DNA from: an uncultured Smithella sp. | GTDB lineage: Bacteria > Desulfobacterota > Syntrophia > Syntrophales > Smithellaceae | Reading direction: 5' to 3' | DNA length: 46,367 bases | Assembly (NCBI GenBank): GCA_964450075.1 | Contig: CAYVFA010000003.1 | Coordinates: 1-46,367, forward strand | Part shown: one piece after another, positions 114 through 36,531 of the stretch | How the letters are laid out: each line of letters begins with the position of its first letter | How positions within the stretch are numbered: position 1 is the stretch's first letter | Translations under genes and position numbers: made by a program | Notes under the pieces: generated by a model | Databases searched by the model: none | What the model saw: the letters and a program-made list of their open reading frames with translations, nothing else | Told to the model about the DNA's origin: nothing

Positions 114-332
114 TTGCAAGGTAAGTTTGTTCCCACCCTGTCCCCACTTTTTATTTTTCTAACAGATAAAAACGGCGTTTTCCGACGGTTCGGGTGTCTC
201 GAAGACAGCAGATCATTTTGCCAGAACTTTTTCAACTGGTACAATAATGATCATTACCATCCCGGAATCGGATTTCTCACGCCGGAAGATGTCCATTACG
301 GACGGGCTGAACAAATGTTATTACAAATTTAA
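114..332 (+). pseudogene. C-terminal remnant of an rve-type DDE transposase/integrase
   Basis: The translated tail RFGCLEDSRSFCQNFFNWYNNDHYHPGIGFLTPEDVHYGRAEQ matches the conserved C-terminal block of rve-superfamily transposases (WYN..H.HSGIG..TP..VH.G.A). No catalytic DDE core lies upstream. The N-terminal 20 or so codons of the ORF look like non-homologous AT-rich read-through. Confidence 0.6.
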
Positions 333-22201: not shown

Positions 22202-24529
22202 TTAAGCATATTGACGGTGCTGGATGGATTCTATATATCCGACGGTTCCCGTGGTAATCTGGGCGGCATTGGCTTCATCCGTATCCAGATGCATATCCAG
22301 TCGATATTTAGGATTGACACGAACCAGCACGTCGCCAAAAATCAGTTCTCTCACACCCTTGACTTTGACCATGACCACGTCTTGATCCCGCAGACCGAGG
22401 TTTAAAGCTTCTTCGGGAGAGATGTGGATATGGCGCTTGGCGCAGATCACCCCTTTGTCCAGTTTTACCGTGCCTGATTCCCCTTCAAGAATGATTCCCG
22501 GAGTTCCCTCTGTGTCGCCGGAGTTCCGAATGGGCGGGTCAATGCCCAGTTTGAAGCGCTCGGTGCAGGAGATTTCCACCTGAGACTCTTTACGTGCGGG
22601 ACCCAAAATCCGGACACGTTCAATTTTCCCTTTCGGTCCAATCAGATTAACCGTTTCGATGGCTGCAAACTGATCCGGCTGGCTCAGCTCGGAACGCGGG
22701 GTCATGGTTTTCCCCACGCCAAAAAGTATCTCAAAATGCTCCTGTGTCAAATGAACATGATGCGCCGAGGTGGATATGGCAATCGGCCGCGAACGGAATT
22801 TCTCAATGTCGGATTTGGAACGCGTGCGGCCCAGCGCGTGAACCGTTTCCCGGGCAATCATTTTTTCTTCATCCGCCGGAACAACCAGAATTCTAGTTTT
22901 GGAGGCGGGCTCTGAAATGTCGGTTATCCGGCCGCGCTGTGCTTTCATTTTGGTGTTAATGTCATCAAACACCATAATGCCAATTGGTTGCATGCCATGA
23001 CAGATTCGGGCACGTATGTCGATGGAATTTTCGCCAATGCCGCCGGTGAAGATCAGCGCGTCGAGTCCACCCATGACTGCCAAGTAGGCGCCGATATATT
23101 TTCTGATCCGATAGCAGAAAGCACTGATCGCCTTTTCACATCGGACATCTCCACATTCCGCCTCCTGCAAAAGCGTGCGCATGTCGTTGCTCTTGCCGGA
23201 AATTCCCAACAGGCCGCTTTTCTTGTTGAGCATCTGATCAATCTGGTCGGGCGTCATGCCCCGCTGGCGCAGCAAATGCAGGATCACACCCGGATCAATG
23301 TCTCCGGCGCGCGTGCCCATGATCAGGCCTTCCAGGGGCGTCATGCCCATGCTGGTATCGACACTTCTGCCGTGATCAATTGCGCAAACCGAAGCGCCGC
23401 TTCCCAAATGACAGGAAATAATCTTAAGCTCACCCAGCGGGCGTTTCAGAAAAGTCGCCGCGCTCAGTGCGACAAACTTGTGATTGGTGCCGTGAAAGCC
23501 ATAGCGGCGAATTTGTTCTTCGTCGCTGACGGCGTAGGGCAGCGCATAAGTGTAGGCATCTTCCGGCATGCCCACGTGAAAGGAGGTGTCAAAGACAGCA
23601 ACCTGCGGAACGTCGGGAATCAGTTTTTGCATCAACTCGATTCCCGCCAGATTGAAGGGATTATGAAGTGGCGCCAGAGGAATCAGATCTTTAATGGCTG
23701 CGGATACGTCAGCGCTTACCATAATGGAATTGGGAAATTGCACACCGCCATGGACGACCCGGTGCCCGACCGCTCTGATTTCTCCCAGATCGTTCATGCC
23801 TGTATAAGCCTTGTCGGTGATCGTGGAAACCATCAGGGTAAAGGCATTTTCAACAGCCGCGACATCCGGGACGGGGAACTCTTTTTTCGCATCGGGTGTT
23901 CTGATGACATGGGAGGCGTCTCCTGAACCGATTTTTTCGATGAGTCCTTCAATGACCGGCGCGGTTGTTGTTGTATCAAACAACGTATATTTCAGGGATG
24001 AACTGCCACAGTTCACGGTCAGGATCTTCATGGGCTCATCAACGGAAGAAAAATTCAGATCGTAAGGATCATCATTTTCCTTATAAACATTTTTCAAACG
24101 TTTTCGAGCATCATCCTGTTCATTGCGCAAGAGCCTTTTGGTTACGAGGCGGGTGAATTTGACAAGAGTCTGGGGATTTCTGGCAATCATTCCAGAAAAT
24201 ATTTCACGTGGAATTTTGATAATTCTGGCGGCACGAAAGGCTACAACGTCCAGAACTGCAGGCTCTCCTGTTAACAGGGCCATTTCACCAAATATTTGTT
24301 CACGCTCCAGTGTGGCAACGGTTCGCTGACTGCCGTCATCCTCTGTGAGCAGGACTTCTACTTCACCGTCATAAACCACCCACAGGAAACGGCCGGGCTC
24401 TCCCCGTTTGATAATTGGGCTGCCATCCGGAAAATCAATCCGTTGTGCGTTTTCGGCAATGAGATGAATGTCCGCGTCCGGCAAATCAGCAAAAATATCA
24501 ATTTTTTTCAAAAACAAGGGAAGTTCCAT
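22202..24529 (-). CDS. Tri-domain fusion: cyclic-nucleotide-binding-like domain, acetate/propionate kinase, and PduL-type phosphate acyltransferase
   Basis: aa 1-125 form a cNMP-binding fold (IF..L......L........F..G..I...GE......V..G.V.V ... FGEMALL). aa 167-567 form acetate kinase (KILTVNCGSSSLKYTLFD, GHRVVHGG, FDT.FH..MP, YGFHGT.H, HLG.GAS, ILVVPADEE.MIA). aa 582-775 form PduL (SAHHVHLTQEHFE.LFG, LSQP.QFAA.ETV.L.GPKG, RHIHISPEEA, DTDEANAA). There are no in-frame stops. Confidence 0.88.
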   Translation of the reverse strand: MELPLFLKKIDIFADLPDADIHLIAENAQRIDFPDGSPIIKRGEPGRFLWVVYDGEVEVLLTEDDGSQRTVATLEREQIFGEMALLTGEPAVLDVVAFRAARIIKIPREIFSGMIARNPQTLVKFTRLVTKRLLRNEQDDARKRLKNVYKENDDPYDLNFSSVDEPMKILTVNCGSSSLKYTLFDTTTTAPVIEGLIEKIGSGDASHVIRTPDAKKEFPVPDVAAVENAFTLMVSTITDKAYTGMNDLGEIRAVGHRVVHGGVQFPNSIMVSADVSAAIKDLIPLAPLHNPFNLAGIELMQKLIPDVPQVAVFDTSFHVGMPEDAYTYALPYAVSDEEQIRRYGFHGTNHKFVALSAATFLKRPLGELKIISCHLGSGASVCAIDHGRSVDTSMGMTPLEGLIMGTRAGDIDPGVILHLLRQRGMTPDQIDQMLNKKSGLLGISGKSNDMRTLLQEAECGDVRCEKAISAFCYRIRKYIGAYLAVMGGLDALIFTGGIGENSIDIRARICHGMQPIGIMVFDDINTKMKAQRGRITDISEPASKTRILVVPADEEKMIARETVHALGRTRSKSDIEKFRSRPIAISTSAHHVHLTQEHFEILFGVGKTMTPRSELSQPDQFAAIETVNLIGPKGKIERVRILGPARKESQVEISCTERFKLGIDPPIRNSGDTEGTPGIILEGESGTVKLDKGVICAKRHIHISPEEALNLGLRDQDVVMVKVKGVRELIFGDVLVRVNPKYRLDMHLDTDEANAAQITTGTVGYIESIQHRQYA

Positions 24530-24760
24530 TTTGACTCACTCCTTCCGCCAGCGAAAGCGTTGGTAACTAAAGATAATAAAAAAGCAACAAGACAAGTAAA
24601 TCTTATGAATAACTTCATCCCCTCCTGAAAGCAGTAATAAGATGATAGGGTGGTTGTTAATAGCATAATCAGGGTTGTTCTGCATCTCTTTTTGTGTCAG
24701 AAGATGTCGGCAGATGCGGCTTACTTGTGCATCTTAATGGACACAATACCCAAAATATCC

Positions 24761-24789
24761 TTGACAGACATGATCGTGTTCCCTATAGT
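24761..24789 (+). promoter_or_regulatory. Sigma70-type promoter for the chemosensory operon
   Basis: TTGACA (24761-24766), a 17 nt spacer, then TATAGT (24784-24789). AAGGA follows about 10 nt before ATG 24815. Confidence 0.55.
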
Positions 24790-24814
24790 TTGCCAACAAA
24801 AAGGACAGTTTGCC

Positions 24815-27019
24815 ATGATAAAACCAACACTCACACTCAAAAGAAAGATTATCGGCCTTGCCATACTGGCTGCGGTTTTACCAGTCGTGGTGATGATGAT
24901 TCTCATGGGATCGTTTCAATCCTCCGTCTCCAAACTGGCCTCGAAAGAGTTGAGCGATGTCGCCATGACGAATATGGCCCAGATTGCCAGGGACGTCTAT
25001 GGGCTTTGCGAAACCTCCAACGATCTGATTCAGAAAAAAATCAACAACGGTTTGAATGTGGCCAGGAACATCCTGAAGCAGCACAAAGGCATAGAAGCAG
25101 GAAAAGAGACGGTTGTCTGGGATGCCGTTAATCAATTGACCAAGCAAACGCAGAAAGTCGAGCTGCCCAAACTGATGGCGGGTGGCGTCTGGCTCGGCCA
25201 GAACCGCAACCCCGCGGTCCCGACACCCATTGTCGATGAAGTGAAACAACTGGTCGGCATCACCTGCACCATCTTTCAGCGGATGAACGAAAACGGCGAC
25301 ATGCTACGCGTGGCAACCAATGTTCAGGACGTGGAAAACCGCAGGGCGATCGGCACCTATATCCCGAACCTCCTGCCGGACGGCACGGCAAATCCGGTTA
25401 CAGATGCGGTTATGAAAGGCCAGCCTTATCGCGGGCTCGCCTATGTGGTCAACACCTGGTACCTGACTGCCTATGAACCCATCAAGGACAGGACGGGAAA
25501 AGTTATCGGCATGCTCTATGTCGGAGAGAGATTGGAAGCCGTTTCCTCGCTCCGGAAGGCCATTCAGAGCATGAAAGTGGGAAAGCTGGGGTATGTGGGT
25601 GTTGTCGGCGGCAAGGGTGAACACAGGGGCCGGTACATTATTTCAAAAGACGGCTCCCGTGACGGCGAAAATATATGGGATCAAAAGGATGTCCATGGCA
25701 ACACAACGATCAAGACCCTGATCGCCACTGCCCTGAAACAGCCCAAAGGCGAGTCTTTCTATCATGAATACATCTGGCAGAATCCCGGCGAGCCGGAACC
25801 CCGGAAAAAGATTTCTTCCGTTATATATTTTGAACCGTTTGACTGGGTCATAGTGGCGGGAACTTATGAGGATGACTTCTTCAGACCCGTAGGTCACGTC
25901 AATGAAATGATCAAATCCCTTTTTCTGAAAGTCGTTGTGACGGGGGGGCTGATCATCCTGCTGTCGGTGTTCCTGGCTGTATTTCTGGCACGTCGCCTGA
26001 CACAGCCGCTGGAGCTGACCACCAGCCTGGCCCAGAAAATCGCCACAGGAGATATCCAGCAGACTCGCGAGGAATTGGCGGGAGCTGAATCGGTGAGGAT
26101 TATTCAGTCGGGAGACGAAACGGGAGAACTTCTGCGGACATTCCAGACCATGACGGATAATCTGGATTCCCTGATCGGCCAGGTCCACAGGTCCGGGATT
26201 CAGGTGACGACCTCAGCAACTGAGATTGCCGCTTCGGCGCGTGAACTGGAAGCAACCGTGGCCCAGCAGGCGGCGTCCACAACGGAAGTGACAGCCACCA
26301 GCCGTGAAATATCCGCCACGGCAGACGATCTTGCACAAACCATGGACGGGGTTAATGTTTCGCTCAATGAAACCATCGGCATGGCTGAATCAGGCCGTGA
26401 TGACCTCACCCATATGGAAGCCGCCATGCGTGAACTGGTCAAAGCCACGACATCGATTTCTTCCAAGCTGGCCGTCATCAACGACCGGGCGAACAAAATC
26501 TCCCATGTGGTCACCACGATCAACAAGATTTCCGATCAAACCAATTTGCTGTCTTTGAATGCTGCCATCGAGGCGGAAAAAGCCGGCGAATTCGGACGGG
26601 GCTTTTCTGTTGTCGCCCGTGAGATCAGCCGTCTGGCCGATCAAACGGCCATCGCTACACAGGACATTCAACAGGTGGTGGCTGAAATGCAGACTTCCGT
26701 TTCAACCGGTGTGATGGAGATGGACAAGTTTACCGACGAGGTGAGGCGCGGTGTGGAAACCGTCTCTACCCAGAGCGGCCAGCTTGCCCGGATCATCGAT
26801 CAGGTGCGCATTCACGGTCCGCAGTTTACAGCCGTGAAGGACGGCATGTACGGCCAGTCCCAGGGAGCACAGCAGATCAGTGAAGCCATGGGTCAATTAT
26901 CCATGGCGGCGGGGCAGACCAAGGAATCGCTGCATGAATTTAAACTGGCGACGGAGCAGCTCAACGAGGCCATAGGCGGGCTTCAGTCAGAGGTCTCCCG
27001 GTTCAAAATCAGCTCCTGA
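24815..27019 (+). CDS. Methyl-accepting chemotaxis protein (WspA position) with a periplasmic Cache-type sensor, HAMP and an MCP signalling domain
   Basis: TM1 IIGLAILAAVLPVVVMMILM. A Cache_3-Cache_2-like block (RVATNV...RAIGTYIP...G.PY.G.AYVVN.WYLTAYEPI.D..GKVIGMLYVG). TM2, HAMP, and the tip NLLSLNAAIEAEKAGEFGRGFSVVAREI. The start is set at ATG 24815, downstream of the promoter; the track ORF begins at 24650. Confidence 0.9.
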   Translation: MIKPTLTLKRKIIGLAILAAVLPVVVMMILMGSFQSSVSKLASKELSDVAMTNMAQIARDVYGLCETSNDLIQKKINNGLNVARNILKQHKGIEAGKETVVWDAVNQLTKQTQKVELPKLMAGGVWLGQNRNPAVPTPIVDEVKQLVGITCTIFQRMNENGDMLRVATNVQDVENRRAIGTYIPNLLPDGTANPVTDAVMKGQPYRGLAYVVNTWYLTAYEPIKDRTGKVIGMLYVGERLEAVSSLRKAIQSMKVGKLGYVGVVGGKGEHRGRYIISKDGSRDGENIWDQKDVHGNTTIKTLIATALKQPKGESFYHEYIWQNPGEPEPRKKISSVIYFEPFDWVIVAGTYEDDFFRPVGHVNEMIKSLFLKVVVTGGLIILLSVFLAVFLARRLTQPLELTTSLAQKIATGDIQQTREELAGAESVRIIQSGDETGELLRTFQTMTDNLDSLIGQVHRSGIQVTTSATEIAASARELEATVAQQAASTTEVTATSREISATADDLAQTMDGVNVSLNETIGMAESGRDDLTHMEAAMRELVKATTSISSKLAVINDRANKISHVVTTINKISDQTNLLSLNAAIEAEKAGEFGRGFSVVAREISRLADQTAIATQDIQQVVAEMQTSVSTGVMEMDKFTDEVRRGVETVSTQSGQLARIIDQVRIHGPQFTAVKDGMYGQSQGAQQISEAMGQLSMAAGQTKESLHEFKLATEQLNEAIGGLQSEVSRFKISS

Positions 27020-27032
27020 TCGGATAACCATC

Positions 27033-27497
27033 ATGTTGCTACTTCAGTTTCAAGCCGGTACCGATCGTTACGGTCTCGATATTGGGCAGATTATCGAAGT
27101 GTCCTCTCTTGTATCGCTGCGGGCCATTCCTCACGCGCCCCCGGAAGTTGCGGGCACCTTCAACTATCGGGGCACCCTCACGCCGGTTGTCGATCTAACA
27201 GCTTTACTGACCTCGGTTCCTTCACGCCTCCGGATGAGCACGCGCATCATTTTGGTAAACTATGTGGGAGAGGACGGACGTTCTCACATTCTGGGTCTGC
27301 TGGCGGAAGCGGTAACGGAAATGGTTCAATGCAAAAAAGAAGACCTTCAGCAGCCGGTTGTGTCGGTCAGCGGTTCAGCCTACCTGGGAGACATGATTTA
27401 CGATGAGCAGGGCTCCCTTCAGGTTTTGGATATGGAGCGGCTTTTGACCCGCGACCTGCTCTTTACTCTTTTTCCGCCGGAGGTCAGTAGCGGATGA
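27033..27497 (+). CDS. cheW: CheW-like coupling protein (WspB position)
   Basis: A single 154 aa CheW domain, with ...RYGLD...I.EV........IP.AP..V.G..N.RG...PV.DL. Confidence 0.85.
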   Translation: MLLLQFQAGTDRYGLDIGQIIEVSSLVSLRAIPHAPPEVAGTFNYRGTLTPVVDLTALLTSVPSRLRMSTRIILVNYVGEDGRSHILGLLAEAVTEMVQCKKEDLQQPVVSVSGSAYLGDMIYDEQGSLQVLDMERLLTRDLLFTLFPPEVSSG

Positions 27498-28762
27498 ATA
27501 CGCTTCCGGCCATTTCACGATTCCTGACGGTTAACCTTGGCATGGCTGCGGATGCTCTCGGCCAAGGGGCTGTCAGCCGGGCCATTACCGCGGCCATGCA
27601 TCAGGAAGGCATCTCTGATCAAAAGGCGTATGAACGTTTGTTTGTTTCATCCGAAGCCGTACGGCAAAGACTAACGGATGCCGTCGTTGTCGGGGAAACC
27701 TGGTTTTTTCGAGATCGGGGTCCATTCACCTGTCTTGCCTCCCATGTTCGAGAATTACGTGAGACAAAGCTTCTGAAAATTCTGTCTGCTCCCTGTGCAA
27801 CAGGAGAGGAGCCTTATTCCATTGCCATGACACTGCTTGCCGCAGGTTTGCCGCCCGCGGCCTTTGTCGTCGATGGGGTGGACATCAGTATCGAAGCCCT
27901 GAATAAGGCCCGGCTTGCCTGTTATGGCAGCGGCTCATTCCGGGGACACATCGGAGCGGATGTCGCCCGGTATTTTCTGGAAACACCTCAGGGACGAAAA
28001 GTATCGGATCAGGTGCGCGGGCAGGTCACCTTTCATCATGACAATCTGGTGAAACCGGACAGTCTTACAGGGCAAGGGCCTTACGACATCATCTTTTGCA
28101 GAAATCTGCTTATTTACCTGACGCCCGAAGCGCGCCGCAGCGTCTTCGAGCGACTGGACCATCTTCTTCTGCCCGGAGGCCTGCTTTTTACCGGTCACAC
28201 GGAAACGATTTTCTGGCATCAGCAGGGCTATCTTCCCCGCAAGTGGGATCGGGCTTTTGCTTTAACAAAACCCGTTTTGCAGCCGATACAGAAAAATACT
28301 GCTAACGCAAGACTGAAATCTGCGTCGCCTCCAGATGCAAAACAGCAGGTAAAGACCTTGACGGGGCACAGCCAGGCATCCGGCAACAAACCGCCGGTCA
28401 AGCCTGTCAGCGCAGATGAGGAACCGCTCCCGGACGGGCAGATTCAGGAAGCCAGGCTTCTGGCCGATCGGGGGGACCTGGAGGGCGCTTTGCGTCTTTG
28501 TCAGGAATATACACGGAAGGTTGGACCGTCCGTTGAAGCATATTGTCTCATGGGTGTCATCCAGATGGCCAGACACGACATGAACGCTGCCCTGGATTTT
28601 TTTCTGAAAGCCATCTATCTTGATCCCGGACACTATGAAAGCCTCATCCATGCCAGTCTTCTCTATCGTCAAAAAGGGGAGAAACAAAAAGAGGCTCTTT
28701 ATCGCGAATGGGCTGAAAGAAAAGCGGGTACTGAAGCAAAGACGGATGAGAAGAGAGCTTAA
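27494..28762 (+). CDS. cheR: CheR-type MCP methyltransferase with a C-terminal TPR region (WspC position)
   Basis: ETWFFRD, ILSAPCATGEEPYSIAM, the SAM-binding region and IFCRNLLIYL. A Pro/Lys-rich linker is followed by TPR-like repeats (EAYCLMGVIQMARHDMNAALDFFLKAIYLDPGHYESL). The start overlaps the cheW stop. Confidence 0.88.
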   Translation: MNTLPAISRFLTVNLGMAADALGQGAVSRAITAAMHQEGISDQKAYERLFVSSEAVRQRLTDAVVVGETWFFRDRGPFTCLASHVRELRETKLLKILSAPCATGEEPYSIAMTLLAAGLPPAAFVVDGVDISIEALNKARLACYGSGSFRGHIGADVARYFLETPQGRKVSDQVRGQVTFHHDNLVKPDSLTGQGPYDIIFCRNLLIYLTPEARRSVFERLDHLLLPGGLLFTGHTETIFWHQQGYLPRKWDRAFALTKPVLQPIQKNTANARLKSASPPDAKQQVKTLTGHSQASGNKPPVKPVSADEEPLPDGQIQEARLLADRGDLEGALRLCQEYTRKVGPSVEAYCLMGVIQMARHDMNAALDFFLKAIYLDPGHYESLIHASLLYRQKGEKQKEALYREWAERKAGTEAKTDEKRA

Positions 28763-28776
28763 CAAAACTTCCCGGT

Positions 28777-29451
28777 ATGGATAGAAATATGGAAAGCGCA
28801 AATAAATATTGCTGGAAAGAAAAGGGAATCTTCGGCGACGGGTCGTGTCTGGAACTGGCCCGTCTGATCCATTGCCGACGTTGTCCCGTCTATGCCACTG
28901 CGGGAAGGCGGCATCTCGATCGGGAATTACCGGTAAAGTATCTGGAGGATCGGGCAAAAGTCATGGCCATGCCCAAGGAGATTGCCAGAATGGGAACTTT
29001 GTCCGTCATGGTCTTTCGCCTGGCGGGTGAGCGGTTTGCCATCAAAACCATTTTTTTTCAGGAAGCAGCCGAGCCGTCCCCGATTCATACGCTGCCGCTC
29101 AAAGTCAACCGTATTTTCCGGGGAATTGCCAACATTAATGGAGAACTTTTGCTTTGCGTTTCCATCGCGGATCTTCTCGAATTGACGATGGAAGAGGCTG
29201 GTGACGAACTGCCTGTGGTTCAGGCCAGAATGCTGGTGGTTGAAAGGGAAGGGCAGCGTTTCGTATTTCCAGTAGAACAGATTCTGGGCGTTCATCGAGT
29301 TGCCCCGGAGGATCTGGGAGAAGTCCCGGCTACGTTGTCCCGTTCGGCAAAATCCCTGACGCGCGGTATTTTTCAACTGGATGGCCGTCATGTGGGACTT
29401 CTGGACGAAGAGCGGCTTTTTCCAGCCATGACGAGGAGCCTTAATCAATGA
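28777..29451 (+). CDS. cheW: CheW-like protein with an N-terminal Cys-rich extension (WspD position)
   Basis: The N-terminus has C12-x11-C24-x7-H32-C33-x2-C36 (YCWKEKGIFGDGSCLELARLIHCRRCPVY). A CheW domain follows (LSVMVFRLAGERFAI ... GIANINGELL). Confidence 0.85.
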   Translation: MDRNMESANKYCWKEKGIFGDGSCLELARLIHCRRCPVYATAGRRHLDRELPVKYLEDRAKVMAMPKEIARMGTLSVMVFRLAGERFAIKTIFFQEAAEPSPIHTLPLKVNRIFRGIANINGELLLCVSIADLLELTMEEAGDELPVVQARMLVVEREGQRFVFPVEQILGVHRVAPEDLGEVPATLSRSAKSLTRGIFQLDGRHVGLLDEERLFPAMTRSLNQ

Positions 29452-31832
29452 CCGCCGCATCTGCCAATACCCCCATTGATCCTCTCATGCTGGATTTGTT
29501 CCGCGTAGAGCTGGAAACCAACACCCGGACGCTGGAGTCCGGGCTGGTGACGGCAGAACGGGACCAAACACCGGAAAGAATTGAACCGCTTATGCGGGCC
29601 GCTCACTCCATCAAGGGGGCTGCCCGGATTGTTGGCTTAAATACGGCCGTTACCCTAGCGCATGCCATGGAGGACGTGCTTTCAGCGGCTCAACACGGGA
29701 AACGATCCCTGACGCCCGATGCGGTGGACCGGCTCTTGAAGGGAAACGATTTTTTTGCAGCTCTTGCCAGCCTGGATATCAGTGAACTGCCGGCTGCTCT
29801 GGAAAAAGGGACTGATGAAATTCAGGCAATGGCGGATCAACTGCGGGCATTCCTGTCCGCGCCGCCGGAAACCGCCCAAGCGGTGATTCCCGAAACAACA
29901 ACCGTCCCGGCGGAGCCGAAACCTGTCGCCCCCATCACCCAAACAGCGCCGGTGCTCTCCACTGCCGTTACCCCTGCCGAGCTTTCTGAAAAACCTGCTT
30001 TGCAACCCCCGACCGATTCTTCCAGTCAGGACGGGACGTGTGCGGGGCCGACAACCGCGCCGGCTGTTCGCTCCCGACGCACACAAGATAAAGGCGAAGG
30101 CGGTCTGGTGCGCGTCAGAGCGGAAAACATGAATCGTCTCATGGCCTTGGCTGGAGAATGTCTTGTCCAGGCCCAATCCGTCAAATCAGTCTATCAAAGC
30201 CTGTTGACTTTAAAGAAGGGCATTGCAGAGCTGGAGAAGCCCCTGCAACTCTCGCTGGAATCGCAAGTGAAAAACGGGGAGGGTGTCCAGGATGCAGGCA
30301 TTCAGGAAAGTCTGCTTCGCGTTGCTGACGTTCAGCAAACGGTTTCACAGGATATTGTGCGGTTTGAACGTTTCTCCCGCCGCCTAGAGCATCTGGCCCA
30401 TCGTCTGTATAACGAAGTGATCAGCAGCCGGATGGTGCCTTTTTCCGATGGTCTGCACGGTTTTTCCCGAATGGTCAGAGACCTGGCCAGGGAAACGGGA
30501 AAACAGGTCAATTTCGAAATTGCCGGGTCCGCTACGCCGGTTGATCGGGACATCCTGGAGAGATTGGAAGCGCCTCTGTCCCACCTGATTCGCAATGCCA
30601 TCGATCATGGCATGGAAACCCCTTCGGAAAGACAGCAGGCAGGCAAACCCGCAGAAGGAACCATCATTCTGGAAGCCCGGCACGTAGCCGGAATGCTGAA
30701 CATCACGCTTGCCGATGACGGTCGGGGAATCAATCCGGAAGACCTCCGGGGCAAGGTGGTCGAAAAGGGGTATGTCACACCCGAAATGGCTGGGAGCCTG
30801 ACCCGTGCTGAACTGTTCGAATTCCTGTTTCTGCCGGGATTCTCGACCGCCAAAGCCGTAACGGAAATTTCCGGTCGGGGCGTCGGTCTGGATGTTGTTT
30901 TCAATATGGCCCATGAAGTGGGTGGTACCGTGCGCGTTGATGCCGAAGCCGGTCGGGGCGCCCGTTTTCATCTCCAGTTGCCGCTGACCCTGTCGGTTTT
31001 ACGAACCCTCCTGCTTTCGATTGCCGATGAGCCCTATGCGCTGCCACTATCGCGCATTGATCGGGTTTTGTCTCTGACCCACACTGATATCAAAGAAATT
31101 GAAGATCGCCCATACTGTACTCTGGATGGAGAGCATGTGGGCATCCTTGACGCCCGTCAGCTTTTTCAACTGCCACCTGTATCCGTCCCGGCAGGACGAT
31201 TTTCAGTGGTTATCATCAGCGACCGGCTGAATCGCTATGGCCTGGTCGTTGACCATGTTATCGGTGAAGAAAACCTTGTTGTGCGCCCCATCGACAGCCG
31301 TCTGGGAAAAATTCCCAACGTCAGCGCCGGCGCTATTCTGGACGATGGTTCTCCGGTCGTCATCTTCGATGTGGACGACCTGGTCCGGTCCATTCACCAG
31401 CTATTGACGACCGGCAAGCTCCAGAAAATCGGTAAGGGCAGCCAGGCCTTGCTGGCAGGAAAGAAGCGGGTCCTGATTGTCGATGATTCTTTGACTGTGC
31501 GCGAAGTGGAACGCAGGCTTCTGGATCATGCGGGCTACGAAGTCACAACCGCCGTGGACGGCGTGGACGGCTGGAATACCTTAAAAACACAAGCCTTTGA
31601 TTTACTCATTTCCGACGTCGATATGCCCCGCATGAATGGTATCGATCTGGTCCGCACCGTCAAGACCGATCCGCTCCTGAAGGAAATGCCCGTCATGATC
31701 GTCTCGTACAAGGACCGCGAAGAGGATCGCTTGAGAGGTTTGGAAGCGGGAGCCAACTATTACCTGACGAAAGGCAGCTTTCATGACGAAAGCCTGCTGA
31801 CCGCCGTACGCGACCTGATCGGAGGCCCCTGA
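29448..31832 (+). CDS. cheA: Hybrid CheA histidine kinase with a C-terminal receiver (WspE position)
   Basis: Hpt (RAAHSIKGAARIVGL) and a long Pro/Thr-rich linker without a P2 domain. Then dimerisation, HATPase (HLIRNAIDHG, DDGRGI, GRGVGLD), a CheW-like P5 domain, and REC (VLIVDDS ... ISDVDMPRMNG ... YLTK). Confidence 0.92.
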   Translation: MTAASANTPIDPLMLDLFRVELETNTRTLESGLVTAERDQTPERIEPLMRAAHSIKGAARIVGLNTAVTLAHAMEDVLSAAQHGKRSLTPDAVDRLLKGNDFFAALASLDISELPAALEKGTDEIQAMADQLRAFLSAPPETAQAVIPETTTVPAEPKPVAPITQTAPVLSTAVTPAELSEKPALQPPTDSSSQDGTCAGPTTAPAVRSRRTQDKGEGGLVRVRAENMNRLMALAGECLVQAQSVKSVYQSLLTLKKGIAELEKPLQLSLESQVKNGEGVQDAGIQESLLRVADVQQTVSQDIVRFERFSRRLEHLAHRLYNEVISSRMVPFSDGLHGFSRMVRDLARETGKQVNFEIAGSATPVDRDILERLEAPLSHLIRNAIDHGMETPSERQQAGKPAEGTIILEARHVAGMLNITLADDGRGINPEDLRGKVVEKGYVTPEMAGSLTRAELFEFLFLPGFSTAKAVTEISGRGVGLDVVFNMAHEVGGTVRVDAEAGRGARFHLQLPLTLSVLRTLLLSIADEPYALPLSRIDRVLSLTHTDIKEIEDRPYCTLDGEHVGILDARQLFQLPPVSVPAGRFSVVIISDRLNRYGLVVDHVIGEENLVVRPIDSRLGKIPNVSAGAILDDGSPVVIFDVDDLVRSIHQLLTTGKLQKIGKGSQALLAGKKRVLIVDDSLTVREVERRLLDHAGYEVTTAVDGVDGWNTLKTQAFDLLISDVDMPRMNGIDLVRTVKTDPLLKEMPVMIVSYKDREEDRLRGLEAGANYYLTKGSFHDESLLTAVRDLIGGP

Positions 31833-32869
31833 TGATCCTGAAAATTGCCGTCGCGCATCATGACGCTATTGCTCTGAAAACAATGCAACAGATCATTACG
31901 CAGGAAACGGACTACAAGATCGTCTGGTCAACTGACAACGCGGGTGACGTGATCCGGAAATGCCGGCGCAACCCCCCGGACATGCTGCTGGTTGATCTGG
32001 CGCTGGCCAACATGAATGGCGACAAGCTGATTTGTGACGTCATGGGTGAAACCCCCTGTCCCATCCTGATTCTATCCGATTCCATCGTGAAACAGGCGGG
32101 AAAAGTTTTTGAAGCGATGGGATGCGGTGCGCTGGATGCCATTGCAACGCCGGTCATCCATCCCAACGGTCTTATGGAAGGCGCGGATGCCCTGCACAAG
32201 AAAATAACAACGATGGCCAAACTTCTGGGAAACGTGACGCAACCGGCGCCAGTGGCTGCACCCGGCACAAGGTCACCTGCGGATCACCTGCCACCTCTGG
32301 TTGCCATCGGTTCTTCAACGGGAGGCCCCAAGGCGCTGGCGAAAATCCTGTCGGGATTTCCTGAAGGTCTGGAAGCGTCCTTCATAATCTGCCAGCACGT
32401 TGATCTCCAGTTTGCGCAGGGTTTGGCTCAATGGCTGGATTCTCAAACACCGCTAAAAGTGGTCCTTGCCCGGGACGGGATGAAGCCCGAAACCGGTGTT
32501 GTGTTGGTTGCGGGGACTAACGATCACCTGGTGCTGGGAGAAGATCGTATTTTCCACTACACAGCCGACCCGCGGGATTACCCTTATCGTCCATCCGTCA
32601 ACACTTTCTTTGAAAGTTTGAAGAAATACTGGCCCCGGAAGGATGTGGCAGTTCTCCTGACGGGCATGGGACGGGACGGCGGGGAAGGCCTGACGGCATT
32701 GCGCAAGGCGGGCTGGCATACGATTGTTCAGGATGAAAAAACGTCCATTGTTTATGGCATGCCGGCGGCGGCAGTGGAACTGGGGGGCGCGGTGGAAATT
32801 CTGCCTCTGGAAATGATTGCCGGAGCAATATTTAAAAAAATAACGGTCAGTAAAGGAATTGTTCTATGA
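31832..32869 (+). CDS. cheB: CheB-type methylesterase with an N-terminal receiver (WspF position)
   Basis: Catalytic blocks AIGSSTGGP (Ser), ICQHV (His) and LTGMGRDG (Asp). The receiver has the acceptor context MLLVDLALANMNG. The start overlaps the cheA stop by 1 nt. Confidence 0.9.
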   Translation: MILKIAVAHHDAIALKTMQQIITQETDYKIVWSTDNAGDVIRKCRRNPPDMLLVDLALANMNGDKLICDVMGETPCPILILSDSIVKQAGKVFEAMGCGALDAIATPVIHPNGLMEGADALHKKITTMAKLLGNVTQPAPVAAPGTRSPADHLPPLVAIGSSTGGPKALAKILSGFPEGLEASFIICQHVDLQFAQGLAQWLDSQTPLKVVLARDGMKPETGVVLVAGTNDHLVLGEDRIFHYTADPRDYPYRPSVNTFFESLKKYWPRKDVAVLLTGMGRDGGEGLTALRKAGWHTIVQDEKTSIVYGMPAAAVELGGAVEILPLEMIAGAIFKKITVSKGIVL

Positions 32870-34089
32870 CGGAAAATGAAACACAAAACACACCCCGGTC
32901 CGCAGGTAAGGCGCCTGCGACAGACCTCACGGCGCATAAAATCAAAGTTCTGCTGATTGATGATCAGGCGATTGTCGGCGTCGCGGTAAAAAGGATGCTT
33001 GAACCGGAAACAGACATTGTTTTTGAATATTGCCAGGATCCCACAAAAGCCATCCCGACCGCCGCTGAATACGGACCGACGGTAATCCTCCAGGACCTTG
33101 TCATGCCGGACATCGACGGTCTGACTCTGGTAAAATTCTTCCGGGTTCATCCCCAGCTTAAGGATGTGCCCCTGATCGTCCTGTCTTCCAAAGAAGAGGC
33201 CGAAACCAAGGCGGACGCGTTTGCCCTGGGTGCAAATGATTATATGGTCAAGCTGCCCGACCGGATAGAACTGATTGCCCGAATCCGCTACCATTCGCAA
33301 GGCTATATCAACCTTCTCCAGAGAAACGAGGCTTACGCCGCTCTTTTAGCCAGCCGGCAGGCGCTGGCCACGGAACTTTCGCAAGCAGCGGATTACGTGG
33401 TTTCGCTCATTCCAGAAGCCATCCCTGAGGGAACCATCAAAACAGCCTGGCGCTTTTTCCCGAGTGCCCAGTTGGGCGGCGACAGCTTTGGCTACCACTG
33501 GATTGACGAGGACCATTTTGCGGTGTATCTTCTGGACGTTTGCGGTCACGGGGTCGGCTCTGCCCTGTTGTCTGTATCGGCCTTCAATGCTATCCGCTCC
33601 CAGACGCTTCCGAACACGGATTTCAGGATTCCCGAAAAGGTTCTGGCGACGCTAAACGACGCTTTTCTGATGGAGCACCACAACAACCTTTACTTCACGA
33701 TCTGGTATGGCGTTTTCAATCGAAGCACACGCGAGCTTCGCTTTGCCAGCGGCGGTCATCCACCGGCTTTTCTGGTGACGAAAGAAGGGAACTTGACCCA
33801 CCTGTTTACGAACAATATGTTCATCGGCGGCCTTCCCGAGAGTCTCTACAAAGGAGATACCGTTAACGTTCCACCCGGAGCCCATCTTTATGTTTTTTCC
33901 GACGGTGTTTACGAAGTGGACGCCCCCGGCGTCAAGATGTGGACACTGGAAGAACTGGGAGGCTACTTGCTGGAAAACAGATTGAATCAAGGCGAAGATA
34001 TAGATGCCCTCTATCGGAAGATGCAGGCCTATCACGGCCAGGACATCCTCGAGGACGACTTCTCCATGATGGCCATTCACTTTGCATGA
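32866..34089 (+). CDS. Response regulator fused to a PP2C/SpoIIE-family serine phosphatase (occupies the WspR output position)
   Basis: REC: VLLIDDQ, LQDLVMPDIDG, VLSS, YMVKLP. PP2C: GGDSFGYHWIDEDHFAVYLLDVCGHGVGSALLS, GGHPP, FSDGVYE, and a terminal DD-containing strand. The start overlaps the cheB stop (ATGA). Confidence 0.9.
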   Translation: MTENETQNTPRSAGKAPATDLTAHKIKVLLIDDQAIVGVAVKRMLEPETDIVFEYCQDPTKAIPTAAEYGPTVILQDLVMPDIDGLTLVKFFRVHPQLKDVPLIVLSSKEEAETKADAFALGANDYMVKLPDRIELIARIRYHSQGYINLLQRNEAYAALLASRQALATELSQAADYVVSLIPEAIPEGTIKTAWRFFPSAQLGGDSFGYHWIDEDHFAVYLLDVCGHGVGSALLSVSAFNAIRSQTLPNTDFRIPEKVLATLNDAFLMEHHNNLYFTIWYGVFNRSTRELRFASGGHPPAFLVTKEGNLTHLFTNNMFIGGLPESLYKGDTVNVPPGAHLYVFSDGVYEVDAPGVKMWTLEELGGYLLENRLNQGEDIDALYRKMQAYHGQDILEDDFSMMAIHFA

Positions 34090-34107
34090 AGCCGAATGAG
34101 GATATTT

Positions 34108-34584
34108 ATGGAAAAGAATTTCACGGATTCAGCGGCTATCACCATACCACCGCCGATATTTTTCTTTGTCTGTCTGGGATGCGGACTTCTGCTGGAATAT
34201 TTATTTCCCATTGCTCTCATCAATCTTCCGCACGTTCCTCGCGTTATTTTCGGCGGGATATTCATCGTGATTGCCGTCTGTTTTGCCGCCAGTGGATTTT
34301 TCATGCTGATCAGAAATAAAACAACTTTTAATACGTCAAAATCGACCAGCAAAATAGTAACAAATGGGGTCTATCGGTTTTCCCGGAACCCACTTTATTT
34401 CTCGCTGATGCTTCTCTTATCCGGTTTTGCTGTCTTGCTGTCTTCGCTTTGGCTATTCATGGCGATCCCGGTTTTGTATGTCCTCTTTTTATTTAAAGCC
34501 GTGAAACCTGAAGAGCAATATCTTTTGCGAAAATTTGGGGAAGAATATTTACATTATTCGGAAAAAGTAAGGCGATGGATTTAG
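34108..34584 (+). CDS. Membrane methyltransferase of the isoprenylcysteine carboxyl methyltransferase / phospholipid methyltransferase (ICMT/PEMT) family
   Basis: Four or five TM segments and the C-terminal signature GVYRFSRNPLYFS......G.......W ... EE..L...FGEEY..Y...V.RWI. ATG 34108 is preferred because GAGGA lies 5 nt upstream; the track start is 34096. Confidence 0.75.
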   Translation: MEKNFTDSAAITIPPPIFFFVCLGCGLLLEYLFPIALINLPHVPRVIFGGIFIVIAVCFAASGFFMLIRNKTTFNTSKSTSKIVTNGVYRFSRNPLYFSLMLLLSGFAVLLSSLWLFMAIPVLYVLFLFKAVKPEEQYLLRKFGEEYLHYSEKVRRWI

Positions 34585-34638
34585 CAAAACCAGTCCGTAG
34601 GAATCAAAAAAAAATACCCGATTTTGGAGATATAACTC

Positions 34639-34956
34639 ATGTGGGAATGGGCTGTCATTATTGTATCAGGGGTTTGTTCCTTATTGAGTTTCTATATGAG
34701 CTTTCTGGCCTTTACAGTTGGCGACCATGGCGTTTTTCTTTTTGCGGCTTTCGGATTGTTTGCCGGCGCTTTTTTCATAGTTTCCGTGATGAGAGTTCTT
34801 GCCGCGAAGAGCATGTTTATGAAACGGATCAATGATGAAATATCCGGAGAATCCAAACCTGTTTCTTTTGTGCCTCACCGGTTTATCATGCTGGCATTCA
34901 TTATCACGGGAATAGCAATTGTGGCTACCATGGTTATCCCCCTGTTTTTTCGATAA
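34639..34956 (+). CDS. Small hypothetical membrane protein (about 3 TM)
   Basis: Three hydrophobic stretches (WAVIIVSGVCSLLSFYMSFLAF; VFLFAAFGLFAGAFFIVSVM; FIMLAFIITGIAIVATMVIPLFF). GGAG lies 9 nt upstream. No recognisable family. Confidence 0.4.
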   Translation: MWEWAVIIVSGVCSLLSFYMSFLAFTVGDHGVFLFAAFGLFAGAFFIVSVMRVLAAKSMFMKRINDEISGESKPVSFVPHRFIMLAFIITGIAIVATMVIPLFFR

Positions 34957-35020
34957 GGGTGGCAGGGAAGCGGAGGGCTTTCAGCTGCCGCTGATCCTGA
35001 GGCTTAACAGAACATCAACA

Positions 35021-36328
35021 CTACATCAGCGCCATATTTTCGGCTTCTCGCATGAGGTCATCCCGGAATTTGGGATGGGCGATGCTGATCAGAGCAAGCG
35101 CTCGTGCCCGCGTTGATTTCCCCTTCAGGTTGACGATGCCGTATTCCGTCGCAATATAATGCACGTCCGTTCGGGGTGTCGTGATCATGGTCCCCGCCGG
35201 AAACTGGCTGACAATACAAGATACTTCTTCGTTTTTTGCCGTGGAGTATAAGACGAGGATGGCTTTGCCTTCGGGCGAATCGTAAGCGCCCCTCACAAAA
35301 TCGAGTTGTCCTCCGGTTCCGCTGTACTGGTGTCCTTCCAGATATTCTGCGTTGCATTGCCCCAGTAAGTCAATTTGCAGGATGGCATTGATGGCTGTCA
35401 TCCGGTGGTTCTGGGCAATGACGCCGGGGTTCATGACATACGAACTGGGAAAATTTTCAAAGCTTTTGTCTTTATCCATATATTGAAAAGTTTCTTTACC
35501 GCCATAAGCAAGAGAAAAAATATGTTTGCCTTGATGGACATTCTTATGCCGTCCCGTAATGACACCTTTTTTAATGAGATCAACCATGCCGGGACAGAGC
35601 AGCTCCGTATGAATGCCCAGATCCTTGTGTCCGTCCAGATAAGGCGCGATCGCATTAGGCAGGTTGCCAAGACCGAGTTGAATCACCGCCCGGTCCGGCA
35701 CATATTCGGCAACGATCTTTCCAATGACCGGCGCCAGCGGATTGGGTTGCATGGGTAATAATTCCAGCAGGGGGACGGTGTTCTCCACAATCATCTCGAT
35801 ATCGGAAATATGAATCATGGCGTCGCCGTAAACGAAGGGCATGTTCTCATTCACTTCGACAATTAATGTTTTGCACAGTGTTGCCATCACGGATAAGTAT
35901 CCATTGCAGGGGCCAAAACTGAAGTAGCCATCTTCATTCATCGGGGCGACGGTGGTGACGGCAACATTGACATCCATGGTTTCCATAACGATTTTCGGCA
36001 CCTGATGGAGATAGGCGGGAACAAATTGTGTCAATCCGACTTGCACCATATTCCGGGATGCTTTACTCACAAACCAGGTATAGGAATCGATGACATCGGC
36101 AATATCAGGACTGCCCAGCGTCTCGGCAAAATGTTTTTGGGCGTTGAATGTGTAAACTTTGATGCGGCTCAGGTAACCGGTTCTTGCCCGTTCAGCGATA
36201 GCAGCCAGCATGCCTGGTGGTTCGGAAATGGTTACGCCATGGATTAGCGTGTCCCCATCTTTAACAATGGCCGCAGCATTTTCAAATGATGTCAGTTTTG
36301 CTTTGTATTGCTCAGAATATTCAATCAT
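35021..36328 (-). CDS. Acetyl-CoA hydrolase/transferase family CoA-transferase (4-hydroxybutyrate / butyryl-CoA:acetate CoA-transferase type)
   Basis: Family hallmarks GIHTELL (catalytic Glu region), INA.LQIDL.GQ, and SG.GGQLDFVRGA; about 435 aa. Confidence 0.85.
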   Translation of the reverse strand: MIEYSEQYKAKLTSFENAAAIVKDGDTLIHGVTISEPPGMLAAIAERARTGYLSRIKVYTFNAQKHFAETLGSPDIADVIDSYTWFVSKASRNMVQVGLTQFVPAYLHQVPKIVMETMDVNVAVTTVAPMNEDGYFSFGPCNGYLSVMATLCKTLIVEVNENMPFVYGDAMIHISDIEMIVENTVPLLELLPMQPNPLAPVIGKIVAEYVPDRAVIQLGLGNLPNAIAPYLDGHKDLGIHTELLCPGMVDLIKKGVITGRHKNVHQGKHIFSLAYGGKETFQYMDKDKSFENFPSSYVMNPGVIAQNHRMTAINAILQIDLLGQCNAEYLEGHQYSGTGGQLDFVRGAYDSPEGKAILVLYSTAKNEEVSCIVSQFPAGTMITTPRTDVHYIATEYGIVNLKGKSTRARALALISIAHPKFRDDLMREAENMALM

Positions 36329-36531
36329 TTTGGAAGGTCTCCTGTTAAAACTGAAGTATGCTATCGCGCCCAGTTAATCCTTTCAAGTAAAATAATGAGG
36401 CAGGCTGCATGCCTGTGGACGACGGGTGATATTTTATGGTTCAGTTTGTCGAAATAGTTGATTTATTATTGGTAATAAGGTATCGAAAGAAAAAGACGGG
36501 CAACAAAATAACTACATGTGGATGAATCAAT

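Follow-up and report, generated by a model that had tools for sequence, protein, structure and literature searches.

A Wsp-type chemosensory operon with a REC-PP2C output regulator in an uncultured Smithella sp.

INTRODUCTION

Chemosensory arrays that serve functions other than motility are common and poorly understood, and the textbook example is the Wsp system, which makes cyclic di-GMP (c-di-GMP) and favors biofilm formation. Here we analyze a locus of an uncultured Smithella sp. (Desulfobacterota; Syntrophales) in which seven chemosensory genes follow the order of the Pseudomonas wsp operon, the last of them coding for a receiver (REC) domain joined to a PP2C/SpoIIE phosphatase domain where WspR would be expected. 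The locus lies on GenBank contig CAYVFA010000003.1 (assembly GCA_964450075.1), positions 1 to 46,367 of the forward strand. We refer to this whole stretch of 46,367 nucleotides (nt) as the window.

Several described systems come close to such an arrangement. Munoz-Martinez et al. (2012, PMC3447774) found that genes for CheR with a TPR region mark clusters of the alternative cellular function (ACF) class, and included 'Ser/Thr phosphatase' among the outputs of the associated regulators. Their Table S2 lists a CheR-TPR cluster together with a REC-Ser/Thr phosphatase in Methylococcus capsulatus and Desulfovibrio salexigens. In the RsbK-RsbM-RsbY pathway of Bacillus cereus (PMC4574943), a kinase tuned by a CheR-like methyltransferase phosphorylates the REC-PP2C protein RsbY, which leads to a STAS/RsbW switch and to sigma-B. 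The 'stage 1' clusters of the F7 chemosensory class (Ortega et al. 2020) contain anti-sigma antagonists and a serine phosphatase; in Shewanella oneidensis Che1 these are CrsR and CrsA, which have been linked to the control of RpoS (PMC7184735, PMC9855816). On the phosphatase side, work by Ho and Bradshaw on RsbU and RssB (PMC12143880) proposes a switching of PPM phosphatases via crossing coiled-coil linkers, an architecture proposed to let sensor modules swap among PPM, GGDEF and kinase outputs. As for experimental work on Wsp-type arrays or other Che pathways leading to REC-PP2C proteins, we found none in the searchable literature, our searches yielding catalogues and the F7/CrsR case only.

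RESULTS AND DISCUSSION

The output regulator joins a WspR-type receiver to a PP2C domain

The list of open reading frames (ORFs) and Pfam searches place seven closely spaced chemosensory genes, all in the same direction, at positions 24815..34089 of the + strand. Their order is identical to WspA-B-C-D-E-F-R (MCP, methyl-accepting chemotaxis protein; numbers in brackets are match E-values or residue positions):

24815..27019, + strand: MCP in the WspA position, 734 amino acids (aa); Cache_3-Cache_2 (3e-92), HAMP, MCPsignal (2.5e-31)
27033..27497, + strand: CheW in the WspB position, 154 aa; CheW (2.5e-24)
27494..28762, + strand: CheR with a C-terminal TPR region in the WspC position, 422 aa; CheR (2.1e-39, residues 68-244), TPR (318-380)
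28777..29451, + strand: second CheW in the WspD position, 224 aa; CheW domain (77-215)
29448..31832, + strand: CheA-REC hybrid in the WspE position, 794 aa; Hpt (14-113), HATPase_c (374-514), CheW (521-648), REC (675-787)
31832..32869, + strand: CheB methylesterase in the WspF position, 345 aa; CheB_methylest (5.9e-54), REC
32866..34089, + strand: output regulator, 407 aa; REC (8.9e-18), SpoIIE (1e-39; 136.9 bits against a cutoff of 25)

The output regulator consists of a WspR-type receiver (residues ~25-145), a helical stalk (~133-180) and a SpoIIE/PP2C domain (~190-407), with no Pfam match to GGDEF. Since the output is PP2C/SpoIIE and GGDEF is missing, the pathway cannot make c-di-GMP. The initial annotation had recognized a REC-PP2C/SpoIIE protein in the place of WspR, and the domain matches agree; what the comparison with known structures adds is that the receiver itself is of the WspR type. 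The top PDB match of the protein is WspR of Pseudomonas aeruginosa (3BRE, PA3702; E-value 1.3e-49, 172 bits), and WspR of P. syringae (3I5A) is matched as well. Over residues 25-167, which cover the receiver and the stalk, 84 of 143 positions (59%) are identical to 3BRE. The next receiver-only match in the PDB, PleD, reaches 56 bits, and P. aeruginosa RssB, which matches the PP2C half too, reaches 101 bits. Identity rises to 62-64% over 140-142 residues when receiver and stalk are compared with annotated diguanylate cyclase response regulators on chromids. The BLASTP alignments with the WspR proteins of Ralstonia and Cupriavidus extend over the receiver, the stalk and beyond (213-256 aa, 45-49% identity). 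Homology to WspR ends within the stalk at about residue 167, and PP2C sequence begins at about residue 170. Judged from these alignments, the WspR receiver and stalk are followed in the output protein by a PP2C effector of the SpoIIE/RsbU type instead of GGDEF.

For the PP2C half, the closest solved structure is P. aeruginosa RssB (E-value 8e-28 with the full-length protein and 2.4e-16 with the domain alone). The PP2C motifs GGD (204-206), DVCGHG (224-229), FSDG (344-347) and DD (397-398) align to those of RssB. In an alignment of 17 family members (63-93% identity), D206, D224, D346 and D397/D398 of the phosphatase are invariant, and so are D32/D33, the phospho-acceptor D77, S107 and K129 of the receiver. 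The AlphaFold2 (AF2) model of the protein has a mean predicted local distance difference test (pLDDT) score of 77.7, with values mostly of 80-97 in the PP2C domain, and contains a single continuous helix (155-180) running across the fusion point. It matches RssB, SiaA-PP2C, RsbX, SpoIIE and Rv1364c with target-normalized TM-scores of ~0.5-0.83; the matches of the PP2C fold to SiaA-PP2C, RssB, RsbX and SpoIIE lie at 0.67-0.83. The view that the metal-binding aspartates are intact is therefore borne out by the invariant motifs and by the PP2C fold of the model; the PP2C domain is not degenerate and, by sequence and fold, looks catalytically competent.

The whole operon is related to Wsp

We compared the seven proteins by BLASTP with two Wsp references, the megaplasmid operon of Ralstonia solanacearum (L084; loci used for comparison are given L numbers) and the chromid operon of Cupriavidus metallidurans CH34 (L089), both of which end in a diguanylate cyclase response regulator. 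The E. coli che genes (L085) served as a flagellar (F7) control. Every one of the seven proteins has its positional Wsp counterpart as the best match and scores higher with it than with its E. coli counterpart; bit scores to the Wsp proteins are 1.7- to 3.3-fold above those to the E. coli F7 proteins.

The MCP is made up of a transmembrane segment, a Cache_3-Cache_2 region of ~325 aa, another transmembrane segment, HAMP and a signaling hairpin. Because the two transmembrane segments found by hydropathy flank the Cache region, the sensor is taken to be periplasmic. This periplasmic domain does not align with WspA. The cytoplasmic part alone does, at 44-47% identity and 269-289 bits (Tar, 28% and 87 bits), and the C-terminal arm past the hairpin tip measures 143 aa, exactly as in Ralstonia WspA. 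The first CheW is 34-35% identical to WspB (76-84 bits, versus 47 bits with E. coli CheW). CheR-TPR aligns with WspC at 34-35% identity across ~420-435 positions, the TPR region included, with 186-209 bits (E. coli CheR, 104 bits). The second CheW matches WspD over its full length (33-34%, 110-115 bits); with E. coli proteins it gives a marginal match of 30 bits to the P5 domain of CheA and none to CheW. CheA comprises P1/Hpt, a linker rich in Pro, Ala and Thr, P3-P4, P5/CheW and REC, and Pfam finds no P2 (CheY-binding) domain in it. Residues 11-792 are 43-45% identical to WspE (589-591 bits), whereas the match to E. coli CheA is restricted to P3-P5 (224 bits). Finally, CheB reaches 377.7 bits with the NCBIfam model NF009206 (cutoff 342) and is closer to Cupriavidus WspF (43%, 241 bits) than to E. 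coli CheB (29%, 144 bits). By sequence as well as by gene order, then, the locus is a true Wsp homolog. The non-flagellar (ACF) role envisaged in the initial annotation gains support from the fact that every component is nearer to Wsp than to E. coli Che, which makes the pathway Wsp-like by homology.

Two side observations concern single components. The second CheW carries an N-terminal motif of four cysteines at residues 12-39 (28810..28893), CWKEKGIFGDGSCLELARLIHCRRCPVY, with the pattern CW..G..GD.SC(x8)C..C. A regular expression recovers the motif in 29 of 42 homologs from related loci, and near-variants occur in several others; it is also present in WspD of Ralstonia (L084:6804-7508) and of Cupriavidus (L089:4852-5604). 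It has no Pfam match, and a literature search on WspD and cysteine turned up no description of it. WspD may differ from WspB in having a metal or redox site here.

The other observation relates to the reference operon of R. solanacearum SL3022, in which the gene in the wspF position (L084:9820-10859) is split into two ORFs (201 and 181 aa) and has no entry in the PLSDB gene table. The split is probably a frameshift, which, to go by wspF mutants, would lock the Wsp pathway of this strain in the on state.

The REC-PP2C operon is widespread

At E ≤ 1e-10 we found more than 7,998 homologs of the output protein, and the best 120 cluster representatives all have the REC+SpoIIE architecture (63-94% identity). 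Scanning GTDB with each species represented by one genome, we obtained at least 562 relatives, from which 80 loci were kept; neighborhood counts were made on 84 related loci, with ORFs labeled by phmmer using the window proteins as queries. In addition to Desulfobacterota (Syntrophales), the 80 loci represent Planctomycetota (Gemmata, Zavarzinella, Pirellula, Isosphaera), Verrucomicrobiota, Methylococcaceae and other Gammaproteobacteria, Alphaproteobacteria, Acidobacteriota, Ignavibacteria, Elusimicrobia and Parachlamydiaceae. All told, the same operon turns up in dozens of genomes, which belong to eight phyla or more. The lineage of the window itself is near 'Deltaproteobacteria bacterium HGW-Deltaproteobacteria-6' and metagenome-assembled genomes of Syntrophales.

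CheB stands directly upstream of REC-PP2C in 47 of the 84 loci, mostly as part of the full MCP-CheW-CheR-CheW-CheA-CheB series. The Che cluster is elsewhere in the locus in 18 more, with Gemmataceae placing the REC-PP2C gene first, and the other 19 are mostly short contigs or belong to an Opitutales subgroup. For long contigs, gene tables bear out the presence of the operon. Since 47 of the 84 loci have this order with REC-PP2C at its end, the arrangement is no chance effect. We also considered the flanking metabolic genes as conserved partners and rejected them. They differ between even close relatives, so the conserved unit is the seven Che genes, which alone travel together.

The domain scans bear out another part of the initial annotation, namely that CheY, CheZ/CheC/CheD and flagellar and pilus genes are missing from the window; CheX and CheV were not found in the 46 kb either. 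Nor does the window contain a stand-alone REC ORF of ≥50 aa, and a single-domain CheY is likewise missing from the conserved operons of relatives. The initial annotation had also considered a CheY or GGDEF output for this CheA encoded just outside the window. The operon lies 24.8 kb and 11.8 kb from the contig ends, and the operons of relatives stop at REC-PP2C with no CheY or GGDEF neighbor.

PP2C is one of several effectors behind the same receiver

We searched the receiver and stalk alone against 1.84 billion representative sequences and obtained 410 clusters at E ≤ 1e-30. Among 70 full-length representatives with a single receiver, the outputs are Guanylate_cyc (16), SpoIIE (15), GGDEF (10), histidine kinase (8-10), HD (5), EAL (1) and TIR (1). 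Fusions to adenylate/guanylate-type cyclases are at least as frequent as those to GGDEF. Very high scores with the WspR-type receiver and stalk are likewise reached by multi-receiver proteins, some with as many as five matched stretches. In a neighbor-joining tree of 72 REC+stalk sequences, receiver identity within one output type equals that between types (~57%) and the tree is star-like, so the number of swaps between GGDEF and PP2C is not resolvable from it. On the strength of these sequence comparisons, PP2C is one of several effectors attached to one strongly constrained receiver.

Partner-switch genes accompany some related operons

What the phosphatase acts on may be suggested by the genes that accompany it. 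Among 60 same-strand genes located just downstream of REC-PP2C in related loci, Pfam detects eight with HATPase_c_2, which is the domain of Ser kinases of the RsbW/SpoIIAB type, and four STAS proteins. Hidden Markov models (HMMs) built from those genes revealed extra copies; in Methylococcaceae, Acidobacteriota and Alphaproteobacteria, some of these stand first in the operon. Altogether, 19 of 84 loci have an RsbW-like gene no more than 500 nt away from REC-PP2C or the Che cluster, and nine have a STAS gene within 1 kb. This linkage is far above the background density of such genes, and RsbW-like and STAS proteins are the sole recurrent signaling neighbors across phyla. An SS pair is seen in all four STAS proteins encoded directly downstream of REC-PP2C; it is part of DSSG in one of them and of ISS or LSS in the remaining three. 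The pair occupies what we take, from SpoIIAA, to be the expected phospho-serine position. The initial annotation had guessed at a partner-switching target encoded elsewhere; the neighborhoods of orthologs in many lineages now lend weight to this proposal, and the window, as guessed, holds no such gene.

Proposed pathway and alternative explanations

The reading we prefer, with a rough probability of 0.6, is that of a Wsp-type ACF pathway whose output protein combines the WspR receiver and stalk with PP2C and acts on a phospho-STAS protein, with the genes of the partner switch lying outside the contig. The periplasmic Cache_3-Cache_2 receptor would bind a small ligand and thereby modulate the WspE-like CheA, with the two CheW paralogs holding receptor and kinase in an array. 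To judge from homology, CheR-TPR and the WspF-like CheB would adapt the receptor by methylation. CheA would then hand its phosphate to Asp77 of REC-PP2C; the residue is conserved, and the transfer is suggested because the receiver is an ortholog of the WspR receiver, which WspE phosphorylates. Phosphorylation may act through a dimeric helical stalk, continuous with the first PP2C helix, to switch the phosphatase, as proposed for linkers of the RsbU/RssB type. Going by the neighborhoods in other lineages, the phosphatase would dephosphorylate a STAS anti-sigma antagonist that an RsbW-like kinase phosphorylates, and the partner-switch genes of this organism would lie outside the 46-kb contig.

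A number of observations weigh against this proposal. Neither the HMMs derived from related-locus neighbors nor Pfam searches of small intergenic ORFs detected STAS or RsbW-like genes in the 46-kb window, so that the link to a target, although supported for the family, is one of guilt by association with no cognate gene in this window. The locus is provisionally assigned to the ACF class by its relatedness to Wsp and by the presence of CheR-TPR, a marker of that class. Of six close relatives (≥81% identity), L001 is the only one with an RsbW-like gene beside the operon, and that gene is atypical: in this 81%-identical relative, the gene right after REC-PP2C (L001:11238-12767) codes for a 509-aa fusion with an N-terminal RsbW-like HATPase_c_2 domain. 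Its C-terminal ~360 aa have only a faint GNAT match (E-value 0.057), and this Ser-kinase fusion might itself be the partner or the substrate of the phosphatase. Most of the RsbW-linked loci have no STAS gene nearby, so that even there a STAS substrate of the kinase is conjectural. Furthermore, no sigma-factor family is found among the 25 most frequent of 68 downstream families.

These points give some room to a phosphatase acting on a different phospho-Ser/Thr substrate, such as a metabolic enzyme, a substrate of a Hanks-type kinase or a transporter, so that the array would control metabolism. Besides the lack of RsbW and STAS genes in cis in the window and in five of six close relatives, such a substrate would be in keeping with the L001 kinase being fused to a 360-aa region of faint GNAT similarity, with the Opitutales REC-PP2C/RsbW pair adjoining ABC-transporter ATPase genes rather than sigma factors, and with the metabolic neighbors in the window (a cNMP-AckA-PduL fusion, acetyl-CoA hydrolase/transferase and glycogen genes; cNMP, cyclic nucleotide monophosphate). 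The neighbors weigh little, though, since flanking genes are not conserved among relatives. Moreover, the characterized PP2Cs of the SpoIIE family (RsbU, RsbP, RsbY, SpoIIE, SiaA and CrsR) target STAS-type proteins (general knowledge and PMC12143880), and no signaling genes other than RsbW-like and STAS ones recur next to the operon across phyla. We therefore regard a non-STAS substrate as unlikely, while granting it a real share of the probability. A bolder version, in which the array controls a metabolic enzyme or transporter in response to a Cache-sensed carboxylate and the WspR-type receiver and stalk would serve as a universal adaptor for at least five output chemistries, is more speculative still; if it were true, a chemosensory pathway would be wired straight to metabolism.

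The similarity to RssB raises the thought that the output protein might be no enzyme and instead a phosphorylation-controlled adaptor or binder that, for example, delivers a sigma factor to a Clp protease. P. aeruginosa RssB is its nearest solved full-length structure, RssB_Pseudo is its top NCBIfam match, and clpS, clpA and aat are located in the window 13-16 kb upstream of the operon. That match, however, amounts to 109.9 bits against a cutoff of 700 (NF045505), for which reason the protein is no RssB ortholog, and NF007969 gives 50 bits against 329. In relatives, the clp genes show no linkage to the operon. In E. coli RssB, which is an adaptor, the PPM domain is truncated and inactive (PMC12143880), whereas here it is of full length, and the invariance of its metal-binding aspartates across phyla argues for selection on catalysis. 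An adaptor role thus appears improbable. Least probable of all, and hardly credible in our judgment, is chemotaxis by flagella or type IV pili with a distant CheY and with REC-PP2C as an accessory phosphate sink. Phosphate-sink receivers do exist in other systems, and a second MCP with a dCache_1 domain is encoded nearby (36532..38556) and is syntenic in the closest relative. Against this stand the lack, over the 46 kb, of CheY and CheZ/C/D/X/V and of any flagellar or pilus gene, a CheA that has no P2 and has its own REC, a CheR-TPR that marks ACF clusters (PMC3447774), the greater closeness of each component to Wsp than to E. coli Che, and the conserved place of REC-PP2C as last gene of the operon in different phyla.

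Junctions, promoter and the downstream gene

The seven genes are packed tightly, with overlaps of 4, 4, 1 and 4 nt at 27494, 29448, 31832 and 32866 and with gaps of 13 and 14 nt at the other two Che-gene junctions. The tight packing and the Wsp order in the initial annotation hold, as ORFs, Pfam domains and junctions are all as described there. Two further features border on the operon:

24761..24789, + strand: putative sigma-70-like promoter, TTGACA, 17-nt spacer, TATAGT
34096..34584, + strand: PEMT/ICMT-like membrane methyltransferase, 162 aa; PEMT (1.3e-13), ICMT (5.3e-07)

The promoter-like site agrees with the consensus at 11 of 12 positions, is the top-scoring site in 24300..36700 and is located ~26 nt upstream of the MCP start, inside a 285-nt divergent intergenic region; it is a putative promoter by consensus match alone. 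The MCP most likely starts at the ATG at 24815, which has an AAGGA Shine-Dalgarno sequence in front and gives a protein of 734 aa. In agreement with this start, homologs are 732 aa long, and their alignment to the longest ORF sets in near its residue 61, which is five residues past that ATG. The initial annotation had the region extend from 24761 to 34584. Its interior stands, and its limits need rewording: position 24761 is the -35 hexamer of the promoter-like site and no gene start, the MCP beginning at 24815, and 34584 is the stop of an eighth gene that went unmentioned.

This eighth gene follows the stop codon of the PP2C gene after a gap of 6 nt, with no convincing intrinsic terminator after either 34089 or 34584, and is probably co-transcribed with the Che operon here. 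The top NCBIfam match of its product is isoprenylcysteine O-methyltransferase, far under the cutoff. As a conserved part of the system the gene was rejected, for it is missing from 83 related loci searched by phmmer and from three further gene tables. The corresponding slot in a 93%-identical relative (L086) is filled by a MazE/PIN toxin-antitoxin pair, which makes it a variable insertion point.

The remainder of the window

The rest of the window codes for glycogen metabolism, ClpS/ClpA/Aat, a PAS-rich hybrid kinase, the cNMP-AckA-PduL fusion, acetyl-CoA hydrolase/transferase, the second MCP and housekeeping functions. Divergent from the Che operon, at 22202..24529 of the - strand, is the gene for this fusion, a protein of 775 aa in which a cyclic-nucleotide-binding domain is joined to a complete acetate kinase and to a phosphotransacylase (PTAC/PduL). 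It unites the entire acetyl-CoA-to-acetate branch in one polypeptide under cNMP regulation. According to the gene tables of four relatives, it does not adjoin the operon in them. The acetyl-CoA hydrolase/transferase gene (35021..36328, - strand) and the gene of the second MCP (36532..38556, + strand; dCache_1-HAMP-MCPsignal) are both syntenic in L086. At the contig edge, a short ORF (114..332, + strand) has a weak match to the rve_3 integrase core (E-value 2.7e-4) and is possibly a transposase remnant. Rfam and tRNA scans of the window returned zero matches.

Significance

The locus is a new example of an architecture catalogued in 2012. The observation reported in the initial annotation is confirmed and its interpretation supported, and the value of this particular window is that of a well-annotated example, not of a new kind of system. 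What the family brings to light is that Wsp-type arrays, down to a receiver ~60% identical to that of WspR, have a protein phosphatase as another of their outputs, a wiring seen in no fewer than eight phyla, environmental Chlamydiae included, and that the recurrent neighbors point to a partner-switching (STAS / RsbW-like) output. It is the homology to the WspR receiver, the broad distribution and the RsbW/STAS linkage taken together that make the pathway testable. The family offers a test case both for methylation-adapted chemoreception that feeds a Ser/Thr phospho-switch and for the predicted exchange of PPM and GGDEF domains behind one coiled-coil linker.

Comparison with known systems

With the Wsp system of Pseudomonas, as seen through the Ralstonia and Cupriavidus operons, the locus has in common the gene order, CheR-TPR, the two CheWs (the second with the Cys4 motif), a P2-less CheA-REC, a WspF-like CheB, the length of the receptor signaling arm and an output receiver and stalk 59% identical to WspR. 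It differs in having a PP2C/SpoIIE output in place of GGDEF and a large periplasmic Cache_3-Cache_2 domain in the receptor.

The clusters of the 2012 survey share the combination of CheR-TPR and REC-PP2C, and the orthologous loci collected here include ones from Methylococcus sp. (L059) and Maridesulfovibrio sp. (L078). The survey gives them as table entries, without gene order, receiver homology, distribution, target or experiment, and they belong to other lineages than the window.

In its logic, RsbK-RsbM-RsbY is the nearest characterized counterpart of the proposed pathway. RsbK, though, is a hybrid sensor histidine kinase; the system has no array of MCP, CheW and CheA and no CheB or CheW, and RsbV, RsbW and sigB are encoded alongside. 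The F7/CrsR systems likewise link a chemosensory cluster genetically to a receiver-PP2C protein, together with a STAS partner, and have been connected with the control of the sigma factor RpoS. F7 clusters have CheY, CheD, Aer2/McpA receptors and an adjacent STAS gene, whereas the window has none of these and instead has a Cache receptor and a Wsp-type core. The CrsR regulator, in the original work of Bouillet et al., reportedly has three domains (REC-PP2C-HATPase_c_2), while the regulator of the window has two.

P. aeruginosa RssB (PDB 3EQ2, 3F7A, 3F79), the best structural match, has the same succession of REC, helical linker and PP2C. Identity by Foldseek is 22-26%, and what distinguishes the protein of the window is its WspR-type receiver and the place of its gene in a Che operon. 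With the receiver and stalk of a diguanylate cyclase regulator leading into a phosphatase, the output protein is a natural instance of the exchange between PPM and GGDEF modules that was proposed from the study of RsbU and RssB (PMC12143880).

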